From the NCBI GenBank assembly GCA_041391385.1, contig JAWKOD010000002.1, positions 173,659 through 237,658 on the forward strand: a DNA stretch of 64,000 bases, in the 5' to 3' direction. The notes beneath the pieces were generated by a model that was not told the origin of the DNA, did not search any database, and worked only from the letters and a program-made list of their open reading frames with translations. The position numbers were made by a program, and so were the translations under genes. Origin of the DNA: Bdellovibrionota bacterium. Its GTDB lineage: Bacteria > Bdellovibrionota > UBA2428. Of this stretch, positions 12,720 to 62,330 are shown in pieces (the stretch's first letter is position 1; every line of letters starts with the position of its first letter).

Positions 12720-15440
12720 ATGAAGAAAAGACTCAGAAGGATTCTAAGTTCTTGGATTTTTTGGGGAGTTGGGGTTTTTCTATTTGTTATCGTAACTCTC
12801 GGCATCGCAGCTTTAAGTACTCCATTTAGCGAAGACGCTCTCAAGATAGTACTTAAACAAGAAACATTTAAAGACATTGAGTTGAGTGAGCTTAGACTTA
12901 AGAAAAAACATTTCGATTTACTAAAATTAAAGTGGACCTTTGAGTTAAGTGCGCATGTAGAAAAAATTTGGGGAATTCCGGTTAAAATTAAAAACCTCAC
13001 TCTCGAAGGCACAAAAGGCCTTTGGTCTAAGGGCGAAGTTGAACGAGGAGTTCTTCGCTTTTCAGAAGAAGAAAAAATATTTAAAGGAGGCTTGGCCTTT
13101 AGTCGTGGGTCTAAGGCAAAGCTTACTTGGGATTTATCTAATTTAGAATTTGCGCTTGGAAGCATTGAAAAAAAGATTGGTGTTCCAGCTTATTTAAAAA
13201 TCGAAAAAAAGACAGAAGAAAAGGTTTTAGCCGAGCTTCTTTTTGATGGATTAAAAATCCCATTAGAACTTAGCTTTCTTGAAAATTCTTTTGTTGTTCA
13301 AATCCCCAAAACAACAATTCAAACACATAAGCAAAAGCTGCCACTTGTCGCTCTTAGCGAAGTGCCGACTACCGGAGAGTGGACTTTCGCTTCGAGATTA
13401 CAGTTTGCAGGGGATCTTTTAAGTGAAGCCACTTTTTTAGAGGTTAGCGATGCACTTATAAATGTTGCTGATGTGAGTTCTGATATTTTAAGAAACGGCA
13501 GAGGCGTAGGGGTATTAAATTTAAAACTAAGCTCTTCGGAAGGTCTCTTGAACGGCACTTTAAATTTGAATTTAGATAAAGCAACTTTTGAGTTGAACGA
13601 GGGACGCTACTTTAAAGTCGAGAGCGCGCCTTTTGAATTGTCAGCTAAGCTTGATCAAAACGCAGGAGACTTTAAAATTACCTCAGATCAAAGTTCATTT
13701 GTTGCTAACTTGAAGCGCAATGGTGATATATCAGGCACGCTAAAAGATTTTGATTTAAGCCTTATTCCAAATGCACAAAAAATATTTGGTGTTACACATA
13801 ATGGAGCCGTTAGTGGCGCGGTGAGTGGCGAAATGCATGCGAAACTTATTTCTGGGCTATTGGGATCTAAGAGTATTGAGCTCGAATCAATTCGAGCAGA
13901 AAAGGCGAGCCTTGCCTTGGAGAATTACAAATTTCCTCTTTTAGTAATATCTGGAAAAAGCACCTTTGAGGGCAGCTTTGATTTTAGTAACAAAAAGAAA
14001 AGTCTAAAAGGTGATTTCGATTTTACAAAATCACGCCTTTCTATGGGCTCTCTTTATGAGAAAAAATCAGGCGATGAACTCTATGTGCGCACAACTGCGG
14101 AGTATGTGAATAACTCTTGGAAAACTTTTCAAATGGAAAGCGTAGTTGATGGGCAGAGAGTTCATTTAAAGAAAGATTCAAGTTCGGTTGTTATCCAGTT
14201 TCCAAACACGATAAAGGGCCCGGGGGAATCAATACTTTCTGGATCTGTAACCTACGCCCTTTGTGAAGATAAATTGTGCGAGGATTTTGAACCCACAGCC
14301 TATAATTTAAGAGTTTCAGATTACTCAAGTCACTTGGCGTTTTTAAATGAACTTAAGATTTCTGGAAATGTATCTAAAAAAGGCGAAAAAATTGAGGCAA
14401 AAGATTTAACTTTAAGATGGCCCTCAGGGGATAGTCTTGTAGTAGATGGAAAACTGGATAAATTTAAAACGCTCGATTTAAAAATAAAAGGTGATTTTGA
14501 TTTTAAAAACATAGCATTTTCAAATCCCTTTTTATTCTTTAAAGAGATGCCCGTTCAAAAAGGGAACCTAGAGCTTGCGATGAATCTAAAGCGAGACAAT
14601 ACGTTGTGGAACTTTATTGCGAGTGCTGACATCGAGGATAAAGCGCTTCATTTTGATCGTTTATCTATAAAACAAAGTTCACAGGATAAAGAGAACAATT
14701 CTTCATACGAGGGTCGGGCTCAAATTGATTTAGAGCCGTATCTTTTAAGAAACGAAGCTATAACCTTAACTTCAACGCTCAAAAACTCAGGAGATCTAGC
14801 AGCTTTTCAGGGATTGCTCATGAGAGGGCGCTTTGATGCTGAGCTTGTGCTTGCAACATCAGGGCTTAATCCTGAAGAGCTTTTAAAGCGCTTTAAGTTG
14901 AGAGCGTCAGGAGATGCAGAATTAGAGCAACTCCCCATTACTTTACTTATTTCTCAGGGACTTAAGTCTTACGCTAAAGAAAGACAAAAGGCTTCTGCGC
15001 GTAGTCTGGCCAAATGTTATCCGCAAAAATTGAGGGGCAAATTTGATTTTGATTACAGCGAAGGTAAGTGGAATCTTGCTCCCAGCGCCTTTCAGGGAGT
15101 GGATCGCGACTCAATCGTAAAAATTCAAGGAGTCTTGGGTGACCTAAGCTCTGTTAACCTCATCTCACACTATCTGCCCGGGCCAAAGTGTGATGCTGAG
15201 CTAGCCGCCTGCTTGGGGGATGCTTTTCCTAAGGGCGGGATGTCATTCGAAATTACAGGTGCCTTTAAAGATCCCGAGACAGATCTCGATTTTGCTTTTA
15301 TAGATCAGAGTCTGGAGAGATGTCGTGAGATCGAAGCTAGGAGAGAAGTTGCCTCAGATACCGCGGTTGATAAACGCGATCAGCGTGCACGAATCCAAGA
15401 ACTCAAAGACTTTTACAACTCTCGTAACCTCTCTCGTTGA
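12720..15440 (+). CDS. Large AsmA-like/bridge-like envelope protein (906 aa)
   Basis: N-terminal TM anchor, long beta-rich body and an AsmA_2-like C-terminus ending in FEITGAFKDPET. Confidence 0.6.
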   Translation: MKKRLRRILSSWIFWGVGVFLFVIVTLGIAALSTPFSEDALKIVLKQETFKDIELSELRLKKKHFDLLKLKWTFELSAHVEKIWGIPVKIKNLTLEGTKGLWSKGEVERGVLRFSEEEKIFKGGLAFSRGSKAKLTWDLSNLEFALGSIEKKIGVPAYLKIEKKTEEKVLAELLFDGLKIPLELSFLENSFVVQIPKTTIQTHKQKLPLVALSEVPTTGEWTFASRLQFAGDLLSEATFLEVSDALINVADVSSDILRNGRGVGVLNLKLSSSEGLLNGTLNLNLDKATFELNEGRYFKVESAPFELSAKLDQNAGDFKITSDQSSFVANLKRNGDISGTLKDFDLSLIPNAQKIFGVTHNGAVSGAVSGEMHAKLISGLLGSKSIELESIRAEKASLALENYKFPLLVISGKSTFEGSFDFSNKKKSLKGDFDFTKSRLSMGSLYEKKSGDELYVRTTAEYVNNSWKTFQMESVVDGQRVHLKKDSSSVVIQFPNTIKGPGESILSGSVTYALCEDKLCEDFEPTAYNLRVSDYSSHLAFLNELKISGNVSKKGEKIEAKDLTLRWPSGDSLVVDGKLDKFKTLDLKIKGDFDFKNIAFSNPFLFFKEMPVQKGNLELAMNLKRDNTLWNFIASADIEDKALHFDRLSIKQSSQDKENNSSYEGRAQIDLEPYLLRNEAITLTSTLKNSGDLAAFQGLLMRGRFDAELVLATSGLNPEELLKRFKLRASGDAELEQLPITLLISQGLKSYAKERQKASARSLAKCYPQKLRGKFDFDYSEGKWNLAPSAFQGVDRDSIVKIQGVLGDLSSVNLISHYLPGPKCDAELAACLGDAFPKGGMSFEITGAFKDPETDLDFAFIDQSLERCREIEARREVASDTAVDKRDQRARIQELKDFYNSRNLSR

Positions 15441-54139: not shown

Positions 54140-54282
54140 CGGACTAGGGGGTCTCATCAAGTCATTCGCTATAATAAACAACACTCATTCCTCACTACGT
54201 TTGTTATGAAAATTGTTTATTATGGCGGAAGTGACGGCGGTCCACGCAACATCTTGAAATTTAAAACATCAAGCAGGTAGCG

Positions 54283-54302
54283 TGTAGCCAAATGTAGCCA
54301 CT
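54283..54302 (+). repeat. Tandem TGTAGCCA motifs (left end), putative integrase arm sites
   Basis: TGTAGCCA at 54283 and 54293; matches 61898-61927. Confidence 0.65.
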
Positions 54303-54344
54303 CACACCCAAAATCCGACATTTCGCTACGTTTCTTTGCATACT

Positions 54345-55439
54345 TCATACGCTGGGCCTTATCTCAATTACTCGTGCAAGCTCTTCTCTAGGGAGAGAAA
54401 ATTGCAGTTTGTCAGTGGCCCCTCGAAGATCCGATCCCGCTACTCTCACATAGCGGTCAGTTGTCTTTAGCTCAGCATGACCTACTATGGCCATGACTTG
54501 TGCAAGAGGTACTCCCTTTAAAAGCATTTGCGTAATAAAGGTGGCCCGAAGATCATGAAACTTTACTTGGGTGATTCCAATGACCTTGCAAAAGTCTCTG
54601 AGGATTTTTGCCTGCTCGCCGTTATCCCAATCCACAATCCGAGGGAGCACGAAGTCTTCGCCGTTTGATTTAAGTCTAAGCTGACTTAGGAGCAGCTTAA
54701 GACTTGTGCTTATGGGTACGACTCTGTTTCTGCGCGACTTTGTGGGGCCAATGCCCGTCTTAGAAGACCAAGACTTAGTCACGTAAATCTTTTCTTCTTC
54801 AAGAAATACATCGCTCCATTTAAGCGCATACAACTCGCCCGACCTCATTCCAGTAAAGACGGCCATCGCCCACACAGGATAAAACCTGTGATTGTTCATG
54901 GCTCCTTCTCTCAAGAGGAGGTCCACCTCTTGCGCATTAAGCACTGACTGCTTAGCCTCTGGTATCCTGATCTTAAATCCGTTACAGGGGTTTCGCTGCA
55001 ATACGCCCTCTTCAATCGCCAATGCCAAAACTCGCTTAATTGTTTTTAGCATCGTGAGCTTTGAGTGCGGTGATCTCACAGACATCTGCACAAAAAGTAT
55101 TTCGTGGATATGTTCTGCTCGAATCATCTCAAGCGGCATATTGTTCAGAACGGGAGTTGCCCATTTCGTCATTTGCCCTGCGTAGTTTTGGATGGTGGAG
55201 AGTCTAAGCTGGAGCTTTTCTCTTTCCAGATAATACTCCATCCATTCTTGCCAAAGCCAAACCTTGGGTCTGTTTTGTTGATCCAAGATTTCGGCCTTGA
55301 GTTTAAACTCCGCCTCGCTAGCGGCTCGCATAGATGTAAATCCACGCAGTCTTTTTTGAAATCGGCCCTTGGGGCTTCTTAAATTTATATACACTTCAAA
55401 AGTGTCTTTTCCGTTTACATTTATTTTTCTGATTGCCAT
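54345..55439 (-). CDS. Tyrosine recombinase/integrase
   Basis: Catalytic set intact: GMRSGE (R), TKSRR (K), FHDLR (HxxR), VGHAE (H) and RYV (Y). Confidence 0.95.
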   Translation of the reverse strand: MAIRKINVNGKDTFEVYINLRSPKGRFQKRLRGFTSMRAASEAEFKLKAEILDQQNRPKVWLWQEWMEYYLEREKLQLRLSTIQNYAGQMTKWATPVLNNMPLEMIRAEHIHEILFVQMSVRSPHSKLTMLKTIKRVLALAIEEGVLQRNPCNGFKIRIPEAKQSVLNAQEVDLLLREGAMNNHRFYPVWAMAVFTGMRSGELYALKWSDVFLEEEKIYVTKSWSSKTGIGPTKSRRNRVVPISTSLKLLLSQLRLKSNGEDFVLPRIVDWDNGEQAKILRDFCKVIGITQVKFHDLRATFITQMLLKGVPLAQVMAIVGHAELKTTDRYVRVAGSDLRGATDKLQFSLPREELARVIEIRPSV

Positions 55440-55481
55440 ATTCTTCTTCCTCTTTCCTTAATTTGAAAAACTTCGAATCCT

Positions 55482-55694
55482 TTAGGATTCGAGTTTTGGA
55501 AGAAGAGACAGCTCTCGAAGTTTAAAACGAAGCCGCCTTCTAATCCTGTATGTAGGTATGTGGCCTCGAAACACATGGATTCGTAACGCATTTACCGACA
55601 TGCGAAGATAAGAGGCTGCCTCAACGGAATTCAGCCAGATTTCACATTCACCTACCTTGTCAAAGAACTCTGCTGATACTTTTATACTCATCAA
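55482..55694 (-). CDS. Excisionase-like HTH protein
   Basis: WLNSVEAASYLRMSVNALR...GHIPTYRIRRRLRF, directly upstream of int. Confidence 0.85.
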   Translation of the reverse strand: MMSIKVSAEFFDKVGECEIWLNSVEAASYLRMSVNALRIHVFRGHIPTYRIRRRLRFKLRELSLLPKLES

Positions 55695-55808
55695 AGCCCT
55701 CCTGTTCTATTCGTTTTTAAATTTTTTCTTATTCTCATTTTTTTCTTTTCCCTTATCTTATTTCTTAATTTTTTTTATTAATTCCCAGTAATCCCGATCT
55801 AGCCCGTA

Positions 55809-55874
55809 GCTCCCCGCCCGCTGACCACTCTCTATCCCTTCTGGTAGATAGAGAGTGGTCAGCGGGCGGGGAGC
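55809..55874. repeat. Perfect 28-bp inverted repeat with a 10-nt loop
   Basis: GCTCCCCGCCCGCTGACCACTCTCTATC-ccttctggta-GATAGAGAGTGGTCAGCGGGCGGGGAGC. Confidence 0.95.
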
Positions 55875-55938
55875 GTCCCACGTGTTTAAGTTGAATGGCC
55901 GTTAAAGCATTGAAGTAAAAGCCGTTTTAAATTCTTTG

Positions 55939-56745
55939 TTACGCGGTATTTTCATCGTTCAAAGTGCTCACGCACTGAGCAAGATTTTCGCTTTCATTGA
56001 GCGGTTTAGCCTCGACAGATTTTGACCCATAGAAGTCCGATAGTTTAGTGCTTGAGCAATCAACAAAGTGAATCATCGCATTTGCTGGTTTTTGTATTAT
56101 GTCGCTCTGCTCGGTGATGATTAGCTGTGGGGAGTAATCAAACATCTGCACATCTAGCCACGCCTTAGTGATTGATTCTTTTATTGAAAGATCGCTAACA
56201 ACATACCAAACGTAGTCTACACTTCGCATATAGCGATACTCTTCAAAAACACCTTTATAGCGTTTTGCGCACTTTAGATTGAGTTCCATCTCAAGCGCAA
56301 TTGTTGATAGTTTGCCTTGGACTTCTTCAATCAAAATACCATCGGGTATTACCTGATCCCTGTGACTTGATGATCTTGTCCACTGAAAGTTCTTTCTCAC
56401 CTGCCGTTCAGATATAAACTCTTTGCACATGTCGATTGACTCTAAGGCCATCCTAAAATCTGTTATTGCTAGCTCATGCTCAAAAGCGTTTCTGTTTGTA
56501 AATCTAGCTAAAACATCCTGACCTATCGCTGTTGCCCCAGCTTTGCCCAAATAATATGCAGCTATCCCGTTACGAAGCCCTACGGATCTGCAAATAAGTT
56601 CATCCTTTTCGAGTTTCCTTAGCCTTCTATACATGGTCGTTGGCGCAATCCCACGAAAGCATTTTGCATGGATGTGTCTTGTTTCAAGTAATCCGTAGCG
56701 ATGAAGAAAATGTAGAAGCTCTTTGTCTCTTTTCTGTATTCTCAA
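55939..56745 (-). CDS. Replication-relaxation (Replic_Relax)-family protein
   Basis: N-terminal wHTH (RDKELLHFLHRYGLLET...RRLRKL), HELAITD, PDGIL...IALEMELNLK and a K...Y motif. Confidence 0.8.
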   Translation of the reverse strand: MRIQKRDKELLHFLHRYGLLETRHIHAKCFRGIAPTTMYRRLRKLEKDELICRSVGLRNGIAAYYLGKAGATAIGQDVLARFTNRNAFEHELAITDFRMALESIDMCKEFISERQVRKNFQWTRSSSHRDQVIPDGILIEEVQGKLSTIALEMELNLKCAKRYKGVFEEYRYMRSVDYVWYVVSDLSIKESITKAWLDVQMFDYSPQLIITEQSDIIQKPANAMIHFVDCSSTKLSDFYGSKSVEAKPLNESENLAQCVSTLNDENTA

Positions 56746-57155
56746 ATATCACTCCTTCCTGTGAGTTCCTGTAGAACTCGCTTTTTTAAATCTTCTTTGG
56801 TGAGTTGCTTTGGCGGCTCAGGTGTTTTTGTAACAATGTCTTTAGGTTTTTCTATAGGTGGCTGAATGTTTTCTCGTTCAGTTTTGGATGTTTCAGCGTG
56901 ATATGTTGGCCGCATTAGCGGTACTGTCTCTGCGCTTTCCATGTCCTCTTTTTCTGCAAAGCCGTATTTCACAACTGCAAATGTAGTTCCAGCAAATACA
57001 GCAAGCACGATGATCCAAAGCTGTAGCGTGAGGTATGCGCTAACAATGTCCCATGCAAGATTTCCCTTATAGTTACTACCGTTAAGCCTCATGCCAAATG
57101 CAACTGCATTCATTCCAAGTGCAATAGCGAGAACGCCCTTAACGATTCTTCGCAT
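56742..57155 (-). CDS. Hypothetical two-TM membrane protein
   Basis: ATG 57155 with GGAAGGA RBS; two hydrophobic segments and a charged tail; 4-nt overlap with the Replic_Relax gene. Confidence 0.65.
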   Translation of the reverse strand: MRRIVKGVLAIALGMNAVAFGMRLNGSNYKGNLAWDIVSAYLTLQLWIIVLAVFAGTTFAVVKYGFAEKEDMESAETVPLMRPTYHAETSKTERENIQPPIEKPKDIVTKTPEPPKQLTKEDLKKRVLQELTGRSDI

Positions 57156-57551
57156 AGGTATTCCTTCCCATGTGATGGGTTCTCCTTTCTTGTTTGTGTG
57201 ACCATCAAGACAAAAACGCACGACAAAGCACTACTTCACAAAACACATTTGCGAAGTAGGCAAAGCAGCGCCTTAGCCTTTTGGCCAAAGTTAAAAATGA
57301 AGTGGTTATGTTTTTATTTTGTTTGAAATTTTAATTTGATTTTTTATTTTTGCTGTGTGAAAGTAGTAGATGTTCAAGCCTACAAGTTCACGCACAATTC
57401 AAATCTAAAAATCTAACGGCCTCCTTTCTTTTTTCTAGGCAAAGTTATGCCTTCATAAATATTGTACCAGCATTTACTTAGTTTCCCCAAGAAAAATCTG
57501 CTCACAAAAAGTACTTGTATAGATTATTTTACCGAAGTTATACTTCGATAT

Positions 57552-57902
57552 ATGTCGAAGTCTCAGGCTCTGCTTTACAGAATGAACGATACTCCCGCTC
57601 CTAAGCTAGCTCGCATATTTGCAGCGCTCTCAGTAGGCGTTAGAATTCGCATCATACGCAACATTGCAAGGCACGGGACTATCGGGGTGGGTAAGCCAAG
57701 AAAGGGACGAGGCTGCACGATTAAAGAGGCAGGACGTGGACTCGGTATTGGTTGGCCTACGTTGTCTCACCATGTGTCGGTCTTGGAAAAGGCTGGGATG
57801 ATAACGATCTCTAGACATGGCCGCTTTAAGCGATGCTGGATAACAACTGAAGCAATTGGAGTGATGTCAGAGTTCTTTATGAGTCTTGGGCCAAGAGTAT
57901 AG
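57552..57902 (+). CDS. ArsR/SmtB-family regulator
   Basis: FAALSVGVRIRII...PTLSHHVSVLEKAGMI..SRHGR. Confidence 0.85.
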   Translation: MSKSQALLYRMNDTPAPKLARIFAALSVGVRIRIIRNIARHGTIGVGKPRKGRGCTIKEAGRGLGIGWPTLSHHVSVLEKAGMITISRHGRFKRCWITTEAIGVMSEFFMSLGPRV

Positions 57903-57960
57903 GTTGAGTATTTAACTTCTATATAAATCTGGATACAGCCAAACATGAACTATAGTTTAA

Positions 57961-58302
57961 TTATATTGTGAGATAGACCCCAATTAGGATAAGTCCTGCT
58001 CCGAGTACCTGCTGTGCAGATAGTGTCTCACTTAAAAAAATTACTGCGCTAAGCGAAATTAGAATGTATCGAATAGAAGATATTGCATTGGATTCTAGTA
58101 ATGGCTGCTTAGTGAGTATTACTAGCCAAAGAAGACTAGAAAATACCCATGCAATTATGGCCGATATCGTCCATGGGCTCATGAGAACTTTAGTAAGTTT
58201 TGTTGACTCCATTGCAGCTAACTTCATGGCTACATGTCCATAGACTGTAGTTAGAAAAAAAACCATCCATGCAAATATTTGAATTGAATTTAAGTTGCGC
58301 AT
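57961..58302 (-). CDS. Four-TM EamA/SMR-type (ArnE/F-like) membrane protein
   Basis: Four hydrophobic helices; FLSETLSAQQVLGAGLILIG C-terminus. Confidence 0.75.
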   Translation of the reverse strand: MRNLNSIQIFAWMVFFLTTVYGHVAMKLAAMESTKLTKVLMSPWTISAIIAWVFSSLLWLVILTKQPLLESNAISSIRYILISLSAVIFLSETLSAQQVLGAGLILIGVYLTI

Positions 58303-58946
58303 AAAATTATCTCCCTTGGGCAATTCCATCTAATAGGAATGGTATCGTTCAAGCCTCGGCTAACGATCATTGTGCTCGTTCCATTCTCAAATCGTGTCCC
58401 ATTCCACTTATAGAAAAACGCAGCAGGATATAACTTCTTCTTCAATTGCCATAAAACAATTTGGCCGCCGTGGAGGTGGCCAGCTATGATTATTTTGTAC
58501 CCTGCGGCTACAGCCTTAGGAAAAATATTCGGATTGTGTGAGCACAATATTGTATTTTTGGGCGGATTTTTATGAATAGAGCCATCAATAGTAATATTTT
58601 TTATGGATTTTCTGGAGTTTTCAATCCAAGACCCTCCCGAATCAATAACTATTTTAGACACGTTATTTTTTCCTACATAATCGTCATGGTTTCCGGAAAT
58701 TGCTAATACAGGTGCAATTACAGTTAATTTAGAGATAAGAAGTTTGAGCTTTATCAACCCAGTCCTATGGTCAACCAAGTCTCCGCCAAGCAATATAAAA
58801 CTAGGGTTTAAATTTTTAACTTTATAAATTATCTGATCTATAAAAAGTGAAGAGGTAAATCCAGAAAAGTGAAAATCTGATAAATATGTAAAGCGGCACG
58901 GAACGCTTAAATTGATTTTTTCTTCGCGGATGAATATCTTAGCCAT
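58290..58946 (-). CDS. Calcineurin-like metallophosphoesterase (YkuE/YaeI-like)
   Basis: SDFH, GGDLVD, GNHD, SHNP, AGHLHGGQ and VSRGL. Confidence 0.9.
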   Translation of the reverse strand: MAKIFIREEKINLSVPCRFTYLSDFHFSGFTSSLFIDQIIYKVKNLNPSFILLGGDLVDHRTGLIKLKLLISKLTVIAPVLAISGNHDDYVGKNNVSKIVIDSGGSWIENSRKSIKNITIDGSIHKNPPKNTILCSHNPNIFPKAVAAGYKIIIAGHLHGGQIVLWQLKKKLYPAAFFYKWNGTRFENGTSTMIVSRGLNDTIPIRWNCPREIILCAT

Positions 58947-59460
58947 TACGTGTACCTTCGTAGATAAGTAATATTGCCAGACAACCTGTACACCAGCGGT
59001 ATATTGCCTTTTGAGGCATAAAAACTGCACTTAACATATGTGCTGCAATCAGCATAGTTATAGGCAGTATCTCAATAAGAGATGTCGATTTCCTTCGAAG
59101 TTTCCATGCATCTTGAAGTGGTCGTTTACTTCCGTCAATTGCAACTGGGAAGAGAAAGATTAATTGAACTTCAACAATATAGAATGCGGGAATTGAAAGC
59201 GCGATTAGAGGCCAGTATGAAAAAAACAAGCCAAAAGCAAGAAAAAGTACTAAGATTAAACTGCTGCAAAAGTATTTCAGGCATCCAAGAAAATTATAGG
59301 AGTGGTTAGGAAACTCAAAGGCTCCCCCTCTATGTTGTTCTAATGCTTTATGCATCCATTTTGCACCTTTATGAAAGCTAAACGTAAACTCGGGTAATTC
59401 TACCAATCCGCTATCAATCATGTGCTTCGCCCTACTTAAGAAATGGTGTGATTTCATCAT
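58939..59460 (-). CDS. Hypothetical membrane protein
   Basis: ATGA overlap with the upstream gene; several TM segments; C-terminal WCTGCLA. Confidence 0.7.
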   Translation of the reverse strand: MMKSHHFLSRAKHMIDSGLVELPEFTFSFHKGAKWMHKALEQHRGGAFEFPNHSYNFLGCLKYFCSSLILVLFLAFGLFFSYWPLIALSIPAFYIVEVQLIFLFPVAIDGSKRPLQDAWKLRRKSTSLIEILPITMLIAAHMLSAVFMPQKAIYRWCTGCLAILLIYEGTRNG

Positions 59461-60017
59461 TTTACAAAACACCAGTGCATCCAAGATAACCAAGCAACTG
59501 TTTTGCCAAAAACAAGCATTCGATGAAATAATGTTTCGATAGCCCTACATCTTTTCCGATGAAAGACAAATTCATCGTATGAAATCAATACAGATGTATA
59601 CAAAGCGAAAACAATTGTTGGAATCAGAAAAACACTAGGATTCTTACTTAAGCTGGAGAGTATCATTAGACAAAAAAGTGGAAATCCTCCACTAGCCATG
59701 GCTAAAATATGACTTAGATGTTCGGCGGGACCGACTGTAAAAAAAAGTCGATGGAAAAGCCAATCTAAAATACCGCCTAGCAATGCGATAGAACCTGATA
59801 TGATCATAGCCCAGACTTGCCACGGGTATTCTGAGTAGGAAAATAGTAACTTATGAGGCACAAAAAACAATAAACAAAAAACAAATAGAATTGTAGGAGC
59901 GAACAATGAAAATAGAGAAATAAAGTCAGAGGCTTTTATGGAAAACGGCTTTCTTTTTAACCCCTCAACCCATGGATGATTAATTAATTCATTTTCCAAA
60001 ATATTCATTTTTATCAT
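59457..60017 (-). CDS. Hypothetical membrane protein with duplicated His/carboxylate motifs
   Basis: DWLFHR...EHLSH and DEFVFHR...ETLFH within TM hairpins. Confidence 0.72.
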   Translation of the reverse strand: MIKMNILENELINHPWVEGLKRKPFSIKASDFISLFSLFAPTILFVFCLLFFVPHKLLFSYSEYPWQVWAMIISGSIALLGGILDWLFHRLFFTVGPAEHLSHILAMASGGFPLFCLMILSSLSKNPSVFLIPTIVFALYTSVLISYDEFVFHRKRCRAIETLFHRMLVFGKTVAWLSWMHWCFVK

Positions 60018-60064
60018 AAAGCCCTCTTTTCATTTTAACTATAAATTGGTGGTTTAAAGTTGTT

Positions 60065-60388
60065 TCACTTCCCCTTGTAAGCAATTAACTCATGTATGTT
60101 TTCAAAGTAGTTTTTTATGGCCTTTTTACCGTTCTCTGTACAAGAATATGTAGTGAGTGTTTTTTTATCTTTGAATTTTTTATGAACCTCCACAAGGCCT
60201 GCGCTTTCTAGTTTTGCGATATGTGAGGATAGGTTCCCTCTGCTCAATTCTAGGTTTTCGCAAAGATAGGTGAAATCGAGTGCGTCTTTTTCGGTAATCA
60301 GTGCTGCCATGATTGCCAACCTTGTGCGATCACTTAAGAGAGGGTGTGTCTCAAGTATGATTTTAGCTTTCATGCTATTTTCCAGCAT
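60065..60388 (-). CDS. Winged-helix regulator (ArsR/HTH_34-like)
   Basis: RTRLAIMAAL...DFTYLCENLELSRGNLSSHIAKLESAGLVEV.K...TTYSCTENG. Confidence 0.88.
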   Translation of the reverse strand: MLENSMKAKIILETHPLLSDRTRLAIMAALITEKDALDFTYLCENLELSRGNLSSHIAKLESAGLVEVHKKFKDKKTLTTYSCTENGKKAIKNYFENIHELIAYKGK

Positions 60389-61094
60389 TTCTCATTTCTT
60401 TAAAGGTTTTTAGAAAGGAAAAAAGTGAAACGGCAAAAAAATATCCCAAGGCCCATCCTACGGAACTTTCTTTACTTATTAGAATATATACTGCAAGTAA
60501 AAGAGCTCCTAAGCCAAGGAGAATTCCTTCTTTGAAGCGCATGTTAAAGATTCGATTATGATAGAGTTCGTCAAAGATAAAAACTAGGAGCATGGGTGAG
60601 ACGAAATCAATTCTTCCACTTATAATAACTAAGCTCAGTGAGAAAAATTTTACGCTCAAATTTGCAACTAGACTTAGTCGTTTCAAATACTGAAAGTTTT
60701 TTTCAAGGTAGCTTGAAAAGCTAAGAGTACTTTTTCTCCAAGACATAAAAGCCGCGAAATAAAACAAAAGAACCATTAAAGCGATAAAAACGCCAAGATT
60801 GGCCAGGCCTACTTTTTGTATTTCCGAGTTATTTATCGATGCATATAAGTCTCGCGTAATTACGTTATCTCCTGCTAGTTCTACGAAAAGGAACAGCCCA
60901 GAGAAAAAGAGGGCTAGCGCCTCGATAATAATTTGGGGCTTGAGGAATTCGAGATTTTTCCTTTGCTTTGAAACTTCAAATTTTTGCAGAATTTGGTTTA
61001 TAAATTCCAGATCATCAGTACTTTTTTGTAATTCTCTCGTATCAATATTTTGTTTGGTCATTACATCTCCCTTTATTGTTTGTATCACAAACAT
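60375..61094 (-). CDS. Hypothetical multi-pass membrane protein
   Basis: About 5-6 TM segments; overlaps the wHTH start. Confidence 0.7.
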   Translation of the reverse strand: MFVIQTIKGDVMTKQNIDTRELQKSTDDLEFINQILQKFEVSKQRKNLEFLKPQIIIEALALFFSGLFLFVELAGDNVITRDLYASINNSEIQKVGLANLGVFIALMVLLFYFAAFMSWRKSTLSFSSYLEKNFQYLKRLSLVANLSVKFFSLSLVIISGRIDFVSPMLLVFIFDELYHNRIFNMRFKEGILLGLGALLLAVYILISKESSVGWALGYFFAVSLFSFLKTFKEMRNAGK

Positions 61095-61195
61095 GTTTGC
61101 AATTGTAGTTAATTTTTCATTAAGATAATAACTTAAATATTTTCATATACTTATGAGTGCCTTTAATTAGTTGCTAATGTGTGTCCAAAGTGGAC

Positions 61196-61224
61196 TTGAT
61201 TTTTGGTATCCGTTTGGATACCAT
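61196..61224 (+). promoter_or_regulatory. Sigma70-type promoter with an overlapping palindromic operator for the TA operon
   Basis: TTGATT-N17-TACCAT, with TGGTATCC-gttt-GGATACCA (61204-61223) between and over the boxes. Confidence 0.7.
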
Positions 61225-61235
61225 AGTAAATAGAA

Positions 61236-61571
61236 GTGGAAGCTACTCCGAAGAACGTCATCGACTATGAAACAGTGGGCGGGAAGTGTCCGCTTCGCGA
61301 ATGGTTAGATGAGTTGGATGCTTCTACCATTGCTCGGATAGAGGCGAGGCTTCAAAGAGTTGCCTTCGGAAATTTTGGAGATGCGAAATCTGTGGGGCAA
61401 GGGGTGAGTGAGCTTCGTATGAAATTTGGAAGTGGATATAGAGTTTACTTCGCTCAGTTTGGAAACGAAATTGTCGTACTCTTGTGTGGAGGAGATAAAT
61501 CCTCTCAAGATAGCGACATAAAAGTAGCAAAGGAATATTGGGAAGATTTTAAAAGGAGAAACAATGCTTAA
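61236..61571 (+). CDS. RelE/ParE-family toxin (addiction module killer type)
   Basis: CPLREWLDEL...ARLQRVAFGNFGDAKSVGQGVSELRMKFGSGYRVYF...LLCGGDKSSQDSDI. Confidence 0.92.
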   Translation: MEATPKNVIDYETVGGKCPLREWLDELDASTIARIEARLQRVAFGNFGDAKSVGQGVSELRMKFGSGYRVYFAQFGNEIVVLLCGGDKSSQDSDIKVAKEYWEDFKRRNNA

Positions 61572-61890
61572 AGGTGGAAGGTCTCATAAAAAATCTTTGG
61601 GTGAATGGCTTAAAAAAAGTCCAGACAATCAAAGAGAATATCTTAAAGCTCAGCTTGAAGAAAATGCTGATATGCCTGAAGTGATTGTTGCTGCAATTCG
61701 CGAAATTGCTGAAGCTCGTGGTTATGAGGTGTTGGCAAAAGAAGCGGGGCTCAGCCAAAAGGCTCTCTACAAAATTCTTGATGATACAAAAGAAGCGAAA
61801 CCTCGTTTTGAAACTATTTCAAAAATCATTCAAGCTCTTGGACTACGCTTTACTGTAGAAGCTAATCCTTACAGGACGAGGTTGGGGTAA
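61564..61890 (+). CDS. HTH antitoxin (addiction module antidote type)
   Basis: YLKAQLE...AAIREIAEARG..VLAKEAGLSQKALYKIL...KPRFETISKIIQALG; overlaps the toxin stop. Confidence 0.9.
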   Translation: MLKGGRSHKKSLGEWLKKSPDNQREYLKAQLEENADMPEVIVAAIREIAEARGYEVLAKEAGLSQKALYKILDDTKEAKPRFETISKIIQALGLRFTVEANPYRTRLG

Positions 61891-61897
61891 AATTTTT

Positions 61898-61927
61898 TGT
61901 AGCCACTGCTGAGCCAAAAAGTAGCCA
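61898..61927 (+). repeat. TGTAGCCA-like motifs (right end), putative integrase arm sites
   Basis: TGTAGCCACT 61898, CTGAGCCA 61909 and AGTAGCCA 61920. Confidence 0.6.
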
Positions 61928-62047
61928 ACCACAGAGAGTGTGTGAAATCTGGAGAAATCTCGTCGCTTCGAAAACTTCTCCTCTGCCGTTTGTTATGTAT
62001 CTGAGTTCCTTGGGGTCTAGGGATCAATCCATTTTGACTTGCCGTCA

Positions 62048-62139
<92 letters not shown>

Positions 62140-62218: not shown

Positions 62219-62314
62219 GAGCTCGGCCCCTACGGGTTAGTTTTTGGAAACTCCGCCAGGTCCGGAAGGAAGCAACGGTACTAAAAACTTCTCTTGGTAG
62301 GGTAAACCGGGCTC
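62219..62314 (+). ncRNA. ffs: Signal recognition particle RNA (4.5S)
   Basis: Conserved GCCAGGTCCGGAAGGAAGCAAC domain IV core; ends pair (GAGCTCGG/CCGGGCTC). Confidence 0.93.
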
Positions 62315-62330
62315 GCTTTATTTGTGGGCT

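Follow-up and report, generated by a model that had tools for sequence, protein, structure and literature searches.

Relaxases of the MOBC family are the least understood of the canonical relaxases; studies have been confined to TraX of pAD1 and MobC of CloDF13, a stable covalent intermediate with DNA has yet to be observed, and the way in which transfer is brought to an end is not known (PMC12857230, PMC6736028). The family corresponds to Pfam PF13814 (Replic_Relax), which CONJscan equates with MobC (PMC5357655) and which falls within the PD-(D/E)XK superfamily, mostly in fusion with a helix-turn-helix (HTH) domain (PMC3424549). TraX binds five direct repeats located 70-120 bp from nic (PMC12857230), inverted repeats and AT-rich regions are present in the origins of transfer (oriTs) of both pAD1 and pAM373 (PMC5587640), and known oriTs usually lie upstream of the relaxase gene, MOBC genes being usually preceded by the gene for the type IV coupling protein (T4CP) (10.1101/2024.01.30.577996).

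A 64,000-nucleotide (nt) stretch of the genome of a Bdellovibrionota bacterium (contig JAWKOD010000002.1, positions 173,659 to 237,658; hereafter the window) was analysed, in which a perfect hairpin at 55809-55874 stands next to the gene for a 268-amino-acid (aa) PF13814 protein. The hairpin is read here, with a probability of about 0.7, as the oriT of this neighbouring MOBC relaxase, carried by a 7.8-kb integrated mobilizable island in a Bacteriovoracaceae host, because it is conserved beside homologous genes, its arms covary, and its core motif resembles one found in pAM373. To our knowledge, no MOBC oriT of this kind has been described in this lineage, the kind of site itself being known.

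Conservation of the hairpin beside MOBC-like genes

The non-coding features are given below in window coordinates, the gene strand being the minus strand, which encodes the relaxase.

55700-55790: tract that is T-rich on the + strand and purine-rich on the gene strand, directly upstream of xis
55809-55874: perfect inverted repeat and candidate core of the oriT; the probable folding strand is +, which is antisense to the relaxase gene
55821-55826: CTGACC box in the left arm, with its mirror GGTCAG at 55857-55862; the best-conserved part of the stem across the family
55837-55846: hairpin loop, TACCAGAAGG on the gene strand
55900-55915: non-coding block CGTTAAAGCATTGAAG, conserved when the intergenic regions of five related elements are aligned; it separates the hairpin from the relaxase stop codon and, on the folding strand, is on the 3' side of the hairpin

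The two arms (55809-55836 and 55847-55874) are 28 nt each, 100% complementary and separated by a 10-nt spacer, as the original prediction for this DNA had described them. Folded as single-stranded DNA, the hairpin gave -40.1 kcal/mol, far beyond the -13.3 ± 2.5 kcal/mol of shuffled sequences (z = -10.8). It also has the predicted position, between the 268-aa Replic_Relax open reading frame (ORF; 55939-56745), whose stop codon is 64 nt away, and a 70-aa HTH_17 ORF (55482-55694). A single copy was found by BLAST in the 2.8-Mb, 16-contig genome assembly, and no further copies of the arms were present in the whole window at up to 3 mismatches (0 expected from shuffles). A dispersed palindrome of the repetitive extragenic (REP-like) type was rejected on this single copy and on the small number of related hairpins, only five, all of them at MOBC genes. 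The only Rfam match, to mir-4865 (35 bits against a threshold of 100), was considered spurious.

Scans of genome and metagenome collections yielded 68 more loci whose proteins are 17-87% identical to the window protein (43-sequence alignment). Most of those with at least 60 nt of downstream flank carry a hairpin 8-170 nt after the stop codon; it lies farther downstream at two of the paralogues in this genome, and about a dozen homologous loci have no downstream hairpin of at least 10 pairs. The original prediction had proposed a search for hairpins beside homologous genes and had named their absence as the outcome that would overturn it; they were present in nearly all loci with enough flank. 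In four close relatives the hairpin is by far the best-conserved non-coding feature between the relaxase gene and xis, with compensating changes in the arms (for example, CCGCCCGCTGACC/GGTCAGCGGGCGG versus CCGCAACTGACC/GGTCAGTTGCGG).

A common design was apparent in 37 distinct hairpins, consisting of a lower stem, the CTGACC box, an upper stem with a C-rich 5' side, and a YWAC(G)AT apex. The relatives' hairpins have 13-30 pairs, and at many loci outer inverted-repeat arms enclose the inner hairpin. Lower stems are unrelated in sequence between loci and add 1-17 further perfect pairs outside the CTGACC box. Alignment positions G10, C12, G45 and C47 are invariant and T9, C13 and A48 are kept in at least 90%, while at the apex A25 and C26 are nearly invariant and the C-rich 5' apical side is retained; this conservation of box and apex extends to loci at 17-35% protein identity. 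Over 20 aligned pairs, 84.9% of the cells were paired, versus 32-45% when partners were slid; 18 of the 20 pairs change on both sides, and the 168 double-change cells compare with 48.6 in shuffles, none of 500 reaching 168. The alignment shows that pairing has been kept by compensatory change, and by these comparisons the hairpin is real, strongly constrained and functional. In the window, loop and apical stem form the asymmetric C-rich ...YWAC... apex of the family (CTCTATCTAC on the gene strand), which would be a candidate recognition or nick region; the block at 55900-55915 is an alternative candidate for the nick or for an accessory site.

The association also holds within the genome, where four more MOBC-like genes were found on contigs C3, C5, C6 and C10, each with a CTGACC-box hairpin downstream (loci L108-L111; C3:12515-14975, C6:24348-28873, C5:14379-15882 and C10:3566-11441). 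When the whole genome was scanned for hairpins with a TGRCY box and 12 or more pairs, 6 sites were returned, 5 of them at the 5 MOBC-like genes.

A related site was found in pAM373, where the interval from the T4CP gene to the relaxase gene contains five ~12-nt direct repeats, a ~145-bp composite inverted repeat and an A-rich tract. Its inner hairpin is TGCAAAATTCCTGACCATTTTAGCG...CGCTAAAATGGTCAGGAATTTTGCA (..CCTGACCA..TGGTCAGG..) and has CAACG on the loop's 5' side. Francia and Clewell (2002) reportedly placed the oriT between orf53 and orf57, as a ~140-bp inverted repeat beside short direct repeats with the TraX nick within the repeat, and Francia et al. (2013) are likewise said to place the oriT and nick of pAD1 and pAM373 within a large inverted repeat. 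Bacillus subtilis pNIB353_2 carries an AGACC/CTACG hairpin ~390 nt upstream of its MOBC gene in the same polarity. In the deposited record of CloDF13, no MobC was found with the family hidden Markov model (HMM), and no CTGACC hairpin.

Compensatory change would also be expected of a duplex palindromic operator, bound by a dimeric regulator (Xis, the ArsR-like protein, or the relaxase's own winged helix-turn-helix (wHTH) acting as a repressor) and controlling xis-int without nicking. The site does lie upstream of xis-int, three HTH proteins are encoded nearby, and PF13814 was first read as a transcription regulator by Steczkiewicz et al. (PMC3424549). We nevertheless regard an operator as highly improbable: the 13-30 consecutive pairs kept far exceed the need of a half-site and the lower stems differ from locus to locus, the apex is asymmetric and polar, the nuclease catalytic residues of the protein are invariant, and the relaxase gene is followed by the hairpin irrespective of the recombinase or xis-like gene beyond it.

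Several side observations were made on these hairpins. Those of C3 and C6 have an identical apex and entirely different lower stems. A subfamily with 3-bp lower stems (L039, L041, L043, L047, L048, L065, L069, L072, L079 and L084) has the flanks TCCACC|GCTGRCC...GGYCAGC|GCTTAC, and its hairpins lie inside a GGCGG/CCGCC stem and a further outer repeat, giving pAM373-like composites of ~100-140 nt. Contigs L052 and L053 end at about the start of the hairpin or inside it, perhaps because the assembly broke at palindromic or multi-copy sequence. In pAM373 (L107), an ORF annotated as a 79-aa 'hypothetical protein' (14283-14522) overlaps the large inverted repeat and the A-rich tract and is probably a mis-annotation.

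Strand asymmetry of the stem and the adjoining tract

A hairpin at the 3' end of one gene and ahead of the next operon could act at the RNA level only, as a terminator lacking a U-tract, a stabiliser of the 3' end of the relaxase mRNA, or an insulator against read-through into xis-int. A perfect GC-rich 28-bp stem would fold in RNA too, and covariation alone cannot separate RNA from DNA; the distribution of stem mismatches bears on this point. On the gene strand, the cells of core and upper stem comprised 434 Watson-Crick, 35 C·A, 12 C·T and 0 G·T, so that 47 of the 47 non-Watson-Crick cells are C·A or C·T and none would be G·U in a sense transcript, the opposite of what is expected of a sense-RNA helix. 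The C·A and C·T of the gene strand are G·T and G·A on the complementary strand. G·T and G·A are the mildest mismatches in DNA, and C·A and G·T each arise by one transition. Zero G·T together with abundant C·A therefore points to selection on the complementary strand, and the folding strand would be the + strand of the window, antisense to the relaxase gene. This asymmetry argues against a helix in the relaxase mRNA and favours a folded single strand of DNA, as in transferred strands or single-strand origins. It likewise does not suit the cruciform of the original prediction, since one particular strand would fold in place of symmetric extrusion.

As had been predicted, neither strand has a T run after the stem, and the hairpin was not called in the terminator scan. 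A Rho-independent terminator was rejected on the missing T tail, the missing call and the sense-strand mismatch pattern, and a terminator-only role, which the prediction had itself raised as the alternative, is disfavoured by the same absence of a T tail and the strand asymmetry. The conservation of box and apex at low protein identity exceeds the needs of a terminator, and in pAM373 and pNIB353_2 the similar hairpin is upstream of the relaxase gene, not at its 3' end. A function confined to RNA is thus judged improbable.

The 91-nt tract at 55700-55790 was correctly described as extremely T-rich, with 57 T, 15 A, 16 C and 3 G (63% T, 79% A+T), and only 6 regions in the whole genome show such a single-base bias. 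Its character is also kept in close relatives. Its designation as an unwinding element was not upheld, for what the family keeps is the purine richness of the gene strand (64-84% in the 100 nt that come after the hairpin, at 34 of 35 loci) with short degenerate repeats, often visible by eye, and not A+T richness. By analogy, the tract is closer in appearance to the region of direct repeats bound in pAD1-type oriTs than to an unwinding element, and it is a candidate for the binding repeats of the relaxase or an accessory protein and/or for the xis-int promoter region.

The relaxase, its island and a candidate helper

The 268-aa protein matched PF13814 with 31.2 bits (cut-off 25.3) over residues 11-175. 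H90, P134, D135, E152, E154 and K158 are invariant in the 43-sequence alignment of the family, and Y181 in a 12-sequence set. An AlphaFold2 model (predicted local distance difference test score, pLDDT, 85.7) consisted of an N-terminal wHTH and an alpha/beta nuclease core, with fold matches to MarR-type wHTH regulators, FokI and the small subunit of R.BspD6I; a sequence search of the PDB with this protein gave nothing meaningful. The family HMM matched the pAM373 relaxase, annotated as 'replication-relaxation family protein' and typed MOBC, at 1.6e-17. Profile comparison of the two by hhalign gave a probability of 97% (E 7.8e-11, 187 columns), with the D, E-x-E, K and Tyr columns aligned. Distant plasmid homologues of the 268-aa protein are also typed MOBC and adjoin T4CP genes. 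According to these alignments, the protein is a TraX-like homologue of MOBC relaxases and a distant member of MOBC outside the curated MobC_subf subfamily.

The C-terminus of the protein (window 55939-56010, residues ~243-268) was modelled as a linker with pLDDT below 50 (residues 243-259) followed by a short helix carrying 'AQxVS', a motif kept in homologues down to ~24-30% identity that may be a signal for a coupling protein.

The hairpin could also be a replication origin of the excised circle (double-strand or single-strand), the relaxase then serving mainly as a rolling-circle initiator. PF13814 was first tied to plasmid replication and relaxation alike (PMC3424549), a review places MOBC enzymes among multifunctional initiators of the rolling-circle type (PMC5714925), and a strand-specific fold with a conserved loop has the look of a single-strand origin. 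No other recognisable replication gene was found in the island, and ParA genes stand beside a few family loci (L073 and L076), which are plasmid-like in this respect. The recurrent partners of the family, however, are coupling proteins and genes of type IV secretion systems (T4SSs), not replication or partition genes. Upstream of the relaxase genes lies a coupling protein (TraG-D_C/TrwB matches) or a member of a small family with two transmembrane (TM) segments; downstream of the hairpins lies a small xis-like gene and then a tyrosine integrase or a large serine recombinase, the hairpin following the relaxase gene regardless of recombinase type. Plasmid homologues that have their own Rep genes still keep the relaxase-like protein beside a T4CP, and the closest matching cis site is in the interval of pAM373 where its oriT is reportedly placed. 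An origin of replication as the main role is accordingly thought unlikely; it is compatible with the oriT reading, and the double-strand origin named in the original prediction is possible as a second role. What stood of that prediction's oriT assignment is the conserved partnership with the relaxase gene, the covariation and the pAM373-like core motif, with the nicking site itself remaining a candidate.

The island and its principal genes are as follows.

54222-62056: integrated element of ~7.8 kb with int, xis, oriT (candidate), relaxase, TM protein, regulator, variable cargo (57903-61889) and att arm
54345-55439, - strand: tyrosine integrase (Pfam Phage_integrase, 4.5e-21)
55482-55694, - strand: excisionase-like HTH_17 protein, 70 aa; likely ATG start at 55691 behind AGGAGGG
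55939-56745, - strand: 268-aa MOBC-like relaxase with N-terminal wHTH and PD-(D/E)XK domain
56742-57221, - strand: 159-aa two-TM protein of family F1, immediately upstream of the relaxase gene
57462-57902, + strand: ArsR/MarR-like wHTH regulator, conserved backbone (67-95% identity in four related elements)
62050-62139, - strand: tRNA-Ser(tga), integration target

An 8-nt core, ATGGCGGA, occurs at both ends (54221-54228 and 62049-62056). Homology to four related elements (G005, G016, G007 and G011) starts at 54222 in 4 of 4, continues to ~57903 in the closest, and resumes at 61889-62082. The minus strand reads, in order, two-TM protein, PF13814 protein, hairpin, purine-rich tract, xis-like gene and tyrosine integrase. 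No mating-pore genes or T4CP were found among the scanned island ORFs (int, xis, relaxase, TM protein, wHTH regulator, EamA and phosphoesterase), the remaining cargo ORFs having been listed only and being too short for a T4CP or VirB4, and no T4CP match was obtained anywhere on the island's contig, C2. With its own integrase and excisionase, defined ends at an attachment (att) site, its own relaxase and candidate oriT, and no mating-pore genes, the island has the features of an integrative and mobilizable element (IME). A search for an empty site in the genus by means of the LysR flank found this gene only in G005, where it is not beside a tRNA, and hence no empty site.

Homologous islands in three relatives end at tRNA-Pro genes (L023 7549-7625, L024 5245-5321 and L025 12905-12981), which suggests a target switch between tRNA-Pro and tRNA-Ser(tga) among integrases that are 74-86% identical. 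The gene for the bacterial small signal recognition particle (SRP) RNA lies directly past the tRNA-Ser target (62220-62316; Rfam 54.8 bits). The wHTH gene at 57462-57902 is on the strand opposite to the relaxase operon and is better conserved in relatives than the relaxase; its product is likely the regulator of the island.

The two-TM family was found at 26 loci, always just upstream of the relaxase gene where the coupling protein is absent. It has a conserved GMxLNGS...NxAW loop, to which close relatives add a C-terminal ...RKRVLRELTGR motif. The two-TM protein had no Pfam match, and a relationship to the N-terminus of T4CPs was rejected (hhalign probability 11%). It may be an adaptor to the coupling protein of a helper, or an exclusion factor.

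Since the island lacks a coupling protein and a T4SS, a helper must supply both. The candidate is the element on C10, where the gene order is a VirB4-like ATPase of 993 aa with a TraG P-loop domain, a weak CagX/VirB9-like protein, a clear TrbI/VirB10-like protein, a T4CP and the MOBC protein, followed by the CTGACC hairpin. Among the other paralogues, C3 and C6 have T4CP, relaxase, hairpin and then a ~600-aa ORF, confirmed by Pfam as a large serine recombinase for C6 and, from its similar size, probably one in C3; at C5 only a fragment of the T4CP is left upstream.

Several observations weigh against the oriT assignment or its parts. The 268-aa protein scored 47.6 bits against NCBIfam NF041423 (MobC_subf), below the cut-off of 200, and the island departs from the usual MOBC layout, since it lacks a T4CP and its hairpin comes after the relaxase gene. 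As the stem in the window is itself perfectly symmetric, the folding strand is deduced from the relatives only, and the tract at 55700-55790 shows a weak 23-nt period (2.8 copies, 68% matches), a poor direct-repeat character. The oriT of pAD1 and pAM373 and its nick are placed inside the large inverted repeat on what Francia and Clewell (2002) and Francia et al. (2013) reportedly found. The motif is not universal, as no CTGACC hairpin was found in the MOBC plasmids Francisella pFPK_1 and Paenibacillus pHD05. Finally, no match to the VirB4 family PF03135 was obtained in this genome; the T4SS-like genes of C10 were found via other families, and the helper role rests on weaker Pfam matches.

Proposed transfer and comparison with described systems

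If the hairpin is the oriT, Int and Xis would excise the island as a circle, and the relaxase wHTH would bind the hairpin box and/or the repeat tract, comparable to TraX on its direct repeats. The relaxase would then nick one strand within or beside the hairpin. The + strand, which folds, would be transferred with the hairpin at its trailing 3' end, where it would refold in the recipient to mark the site of termination and re-joining. Coupling protein and T4SS would be borrowed, possibly from the C10 element. The same nick might also prime rolling-circle copying of the excised circle (PMC5714925).

More tentatively, and with considerable doubt, the CTGACC hairpin and its YWACG apex may constitute an ancient, portable module for recognition and termination by TraX-type PD-(D/E)XK relaxases, distributed from Bacillota plasmids to Bdellovibrionota islands and active solely in the form of a folded single strand, the one antisense to the relaxase gene. 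Were this true, each of the five co-resident systems would owe its specificity to the variable lower stem, and the fold would hold both ends for re-joining; this would account for the completion of transfer by a restriction-enzyme-like relaxase for which a stable covalent DNA intermediate has yet to be observed.

Little has been described of the routes by which genes move horizontally in the predatory Bdellovibrionota. The locus documents mobilizable islands and a probable helper conjugative element in this group. Together with ~37 relatives, it offers a compact oriT candidate with a conserved box, a co-varying stem and a prediction of the folding strand, and is a substrate for direct biochemistry; the motif could also be used for automatic annotation of oriTs in this lineage.

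Compared with oriT2 of pAD1 and the oriT of pAM373, the locus shares a homologous relaxase of wHTH plus PD-(D/E)XK architecture with aligned active-site columns, and a large inverted repeat beside the MOBC relaxase gene, here the perfect 28-bp repeat. Its similarity to pAM373 at the site itself is limited to the CTGACC(A)...(T)GGTCAG box and the CAACG/CTACG at the 5' apical side, in the same polarity to the relaxase gene; an A- or purine-rich tract also follows the inverted repeat in both, and the short direct repeats of pAM373 have a possible, weakly periodic counterpart here. In contrast, the site here is a single perfect 66-nt unit and not a ~140-bp composite repeat, although other family members have outer arms, and its place is after the relaxase gene, not in the interval from the T4CP gene to the relaxase gene. 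Even the paralogues with a T4CP upstream of the relaxase have the hairpin downstream of it, unlike pAM373. The genetic setting differs as well, being a 7.8-kb chromosomal tyrosine-integrase island of Bdellovibrionota that lacks a T4CP and not a conjugative plasmid.

Among integrated elements, the streptococcal IME_Class_8 combines a VirD4 coupling protein, a MobC/PF13814 relaxase and a serine integrase, and compact relaxase-excisionase-integrase IMEs are also known (Coluzzi et al. 2017, PMC5357655). The island resembles these IMEs in its compact mobilisation and recombination module with a PF13814 relaxase, and its relaxase-xis-int order is that of the tyrosine-integrase IMEs. The paralogous C6 and C3 modules (T4CP, relaxase, hairpin, then a serine recombinase, Pfam-confirmed in C6 and presumed in C3) are the counterparts of IME_Class_8. 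Streptococcal MobC relaxases have been found only with a serine integrase and VirD4, whereas the island has a tyrosine integrase with Xis, and a small two-TM protein takes the position of its missing coupling protein; an oriT has not been defined for the streptococcal elements (PMC5357655). The MobC of the 89K island was set aside as a comparison, being an unrelated accessory protein of the R1162 type.

The oriTs of HUH relaxases (for example, TrwC of R388 and MobA of R1162) provide a further parallel, in that an inverted repeat is read as a folded single strand, is proposed to lie 5' of nic on the transferred strand, and has a role in termination. The present system differs from them in the PD-(D/E)XK fold of its relaxase, which is not HUH, and in a much longer stem.

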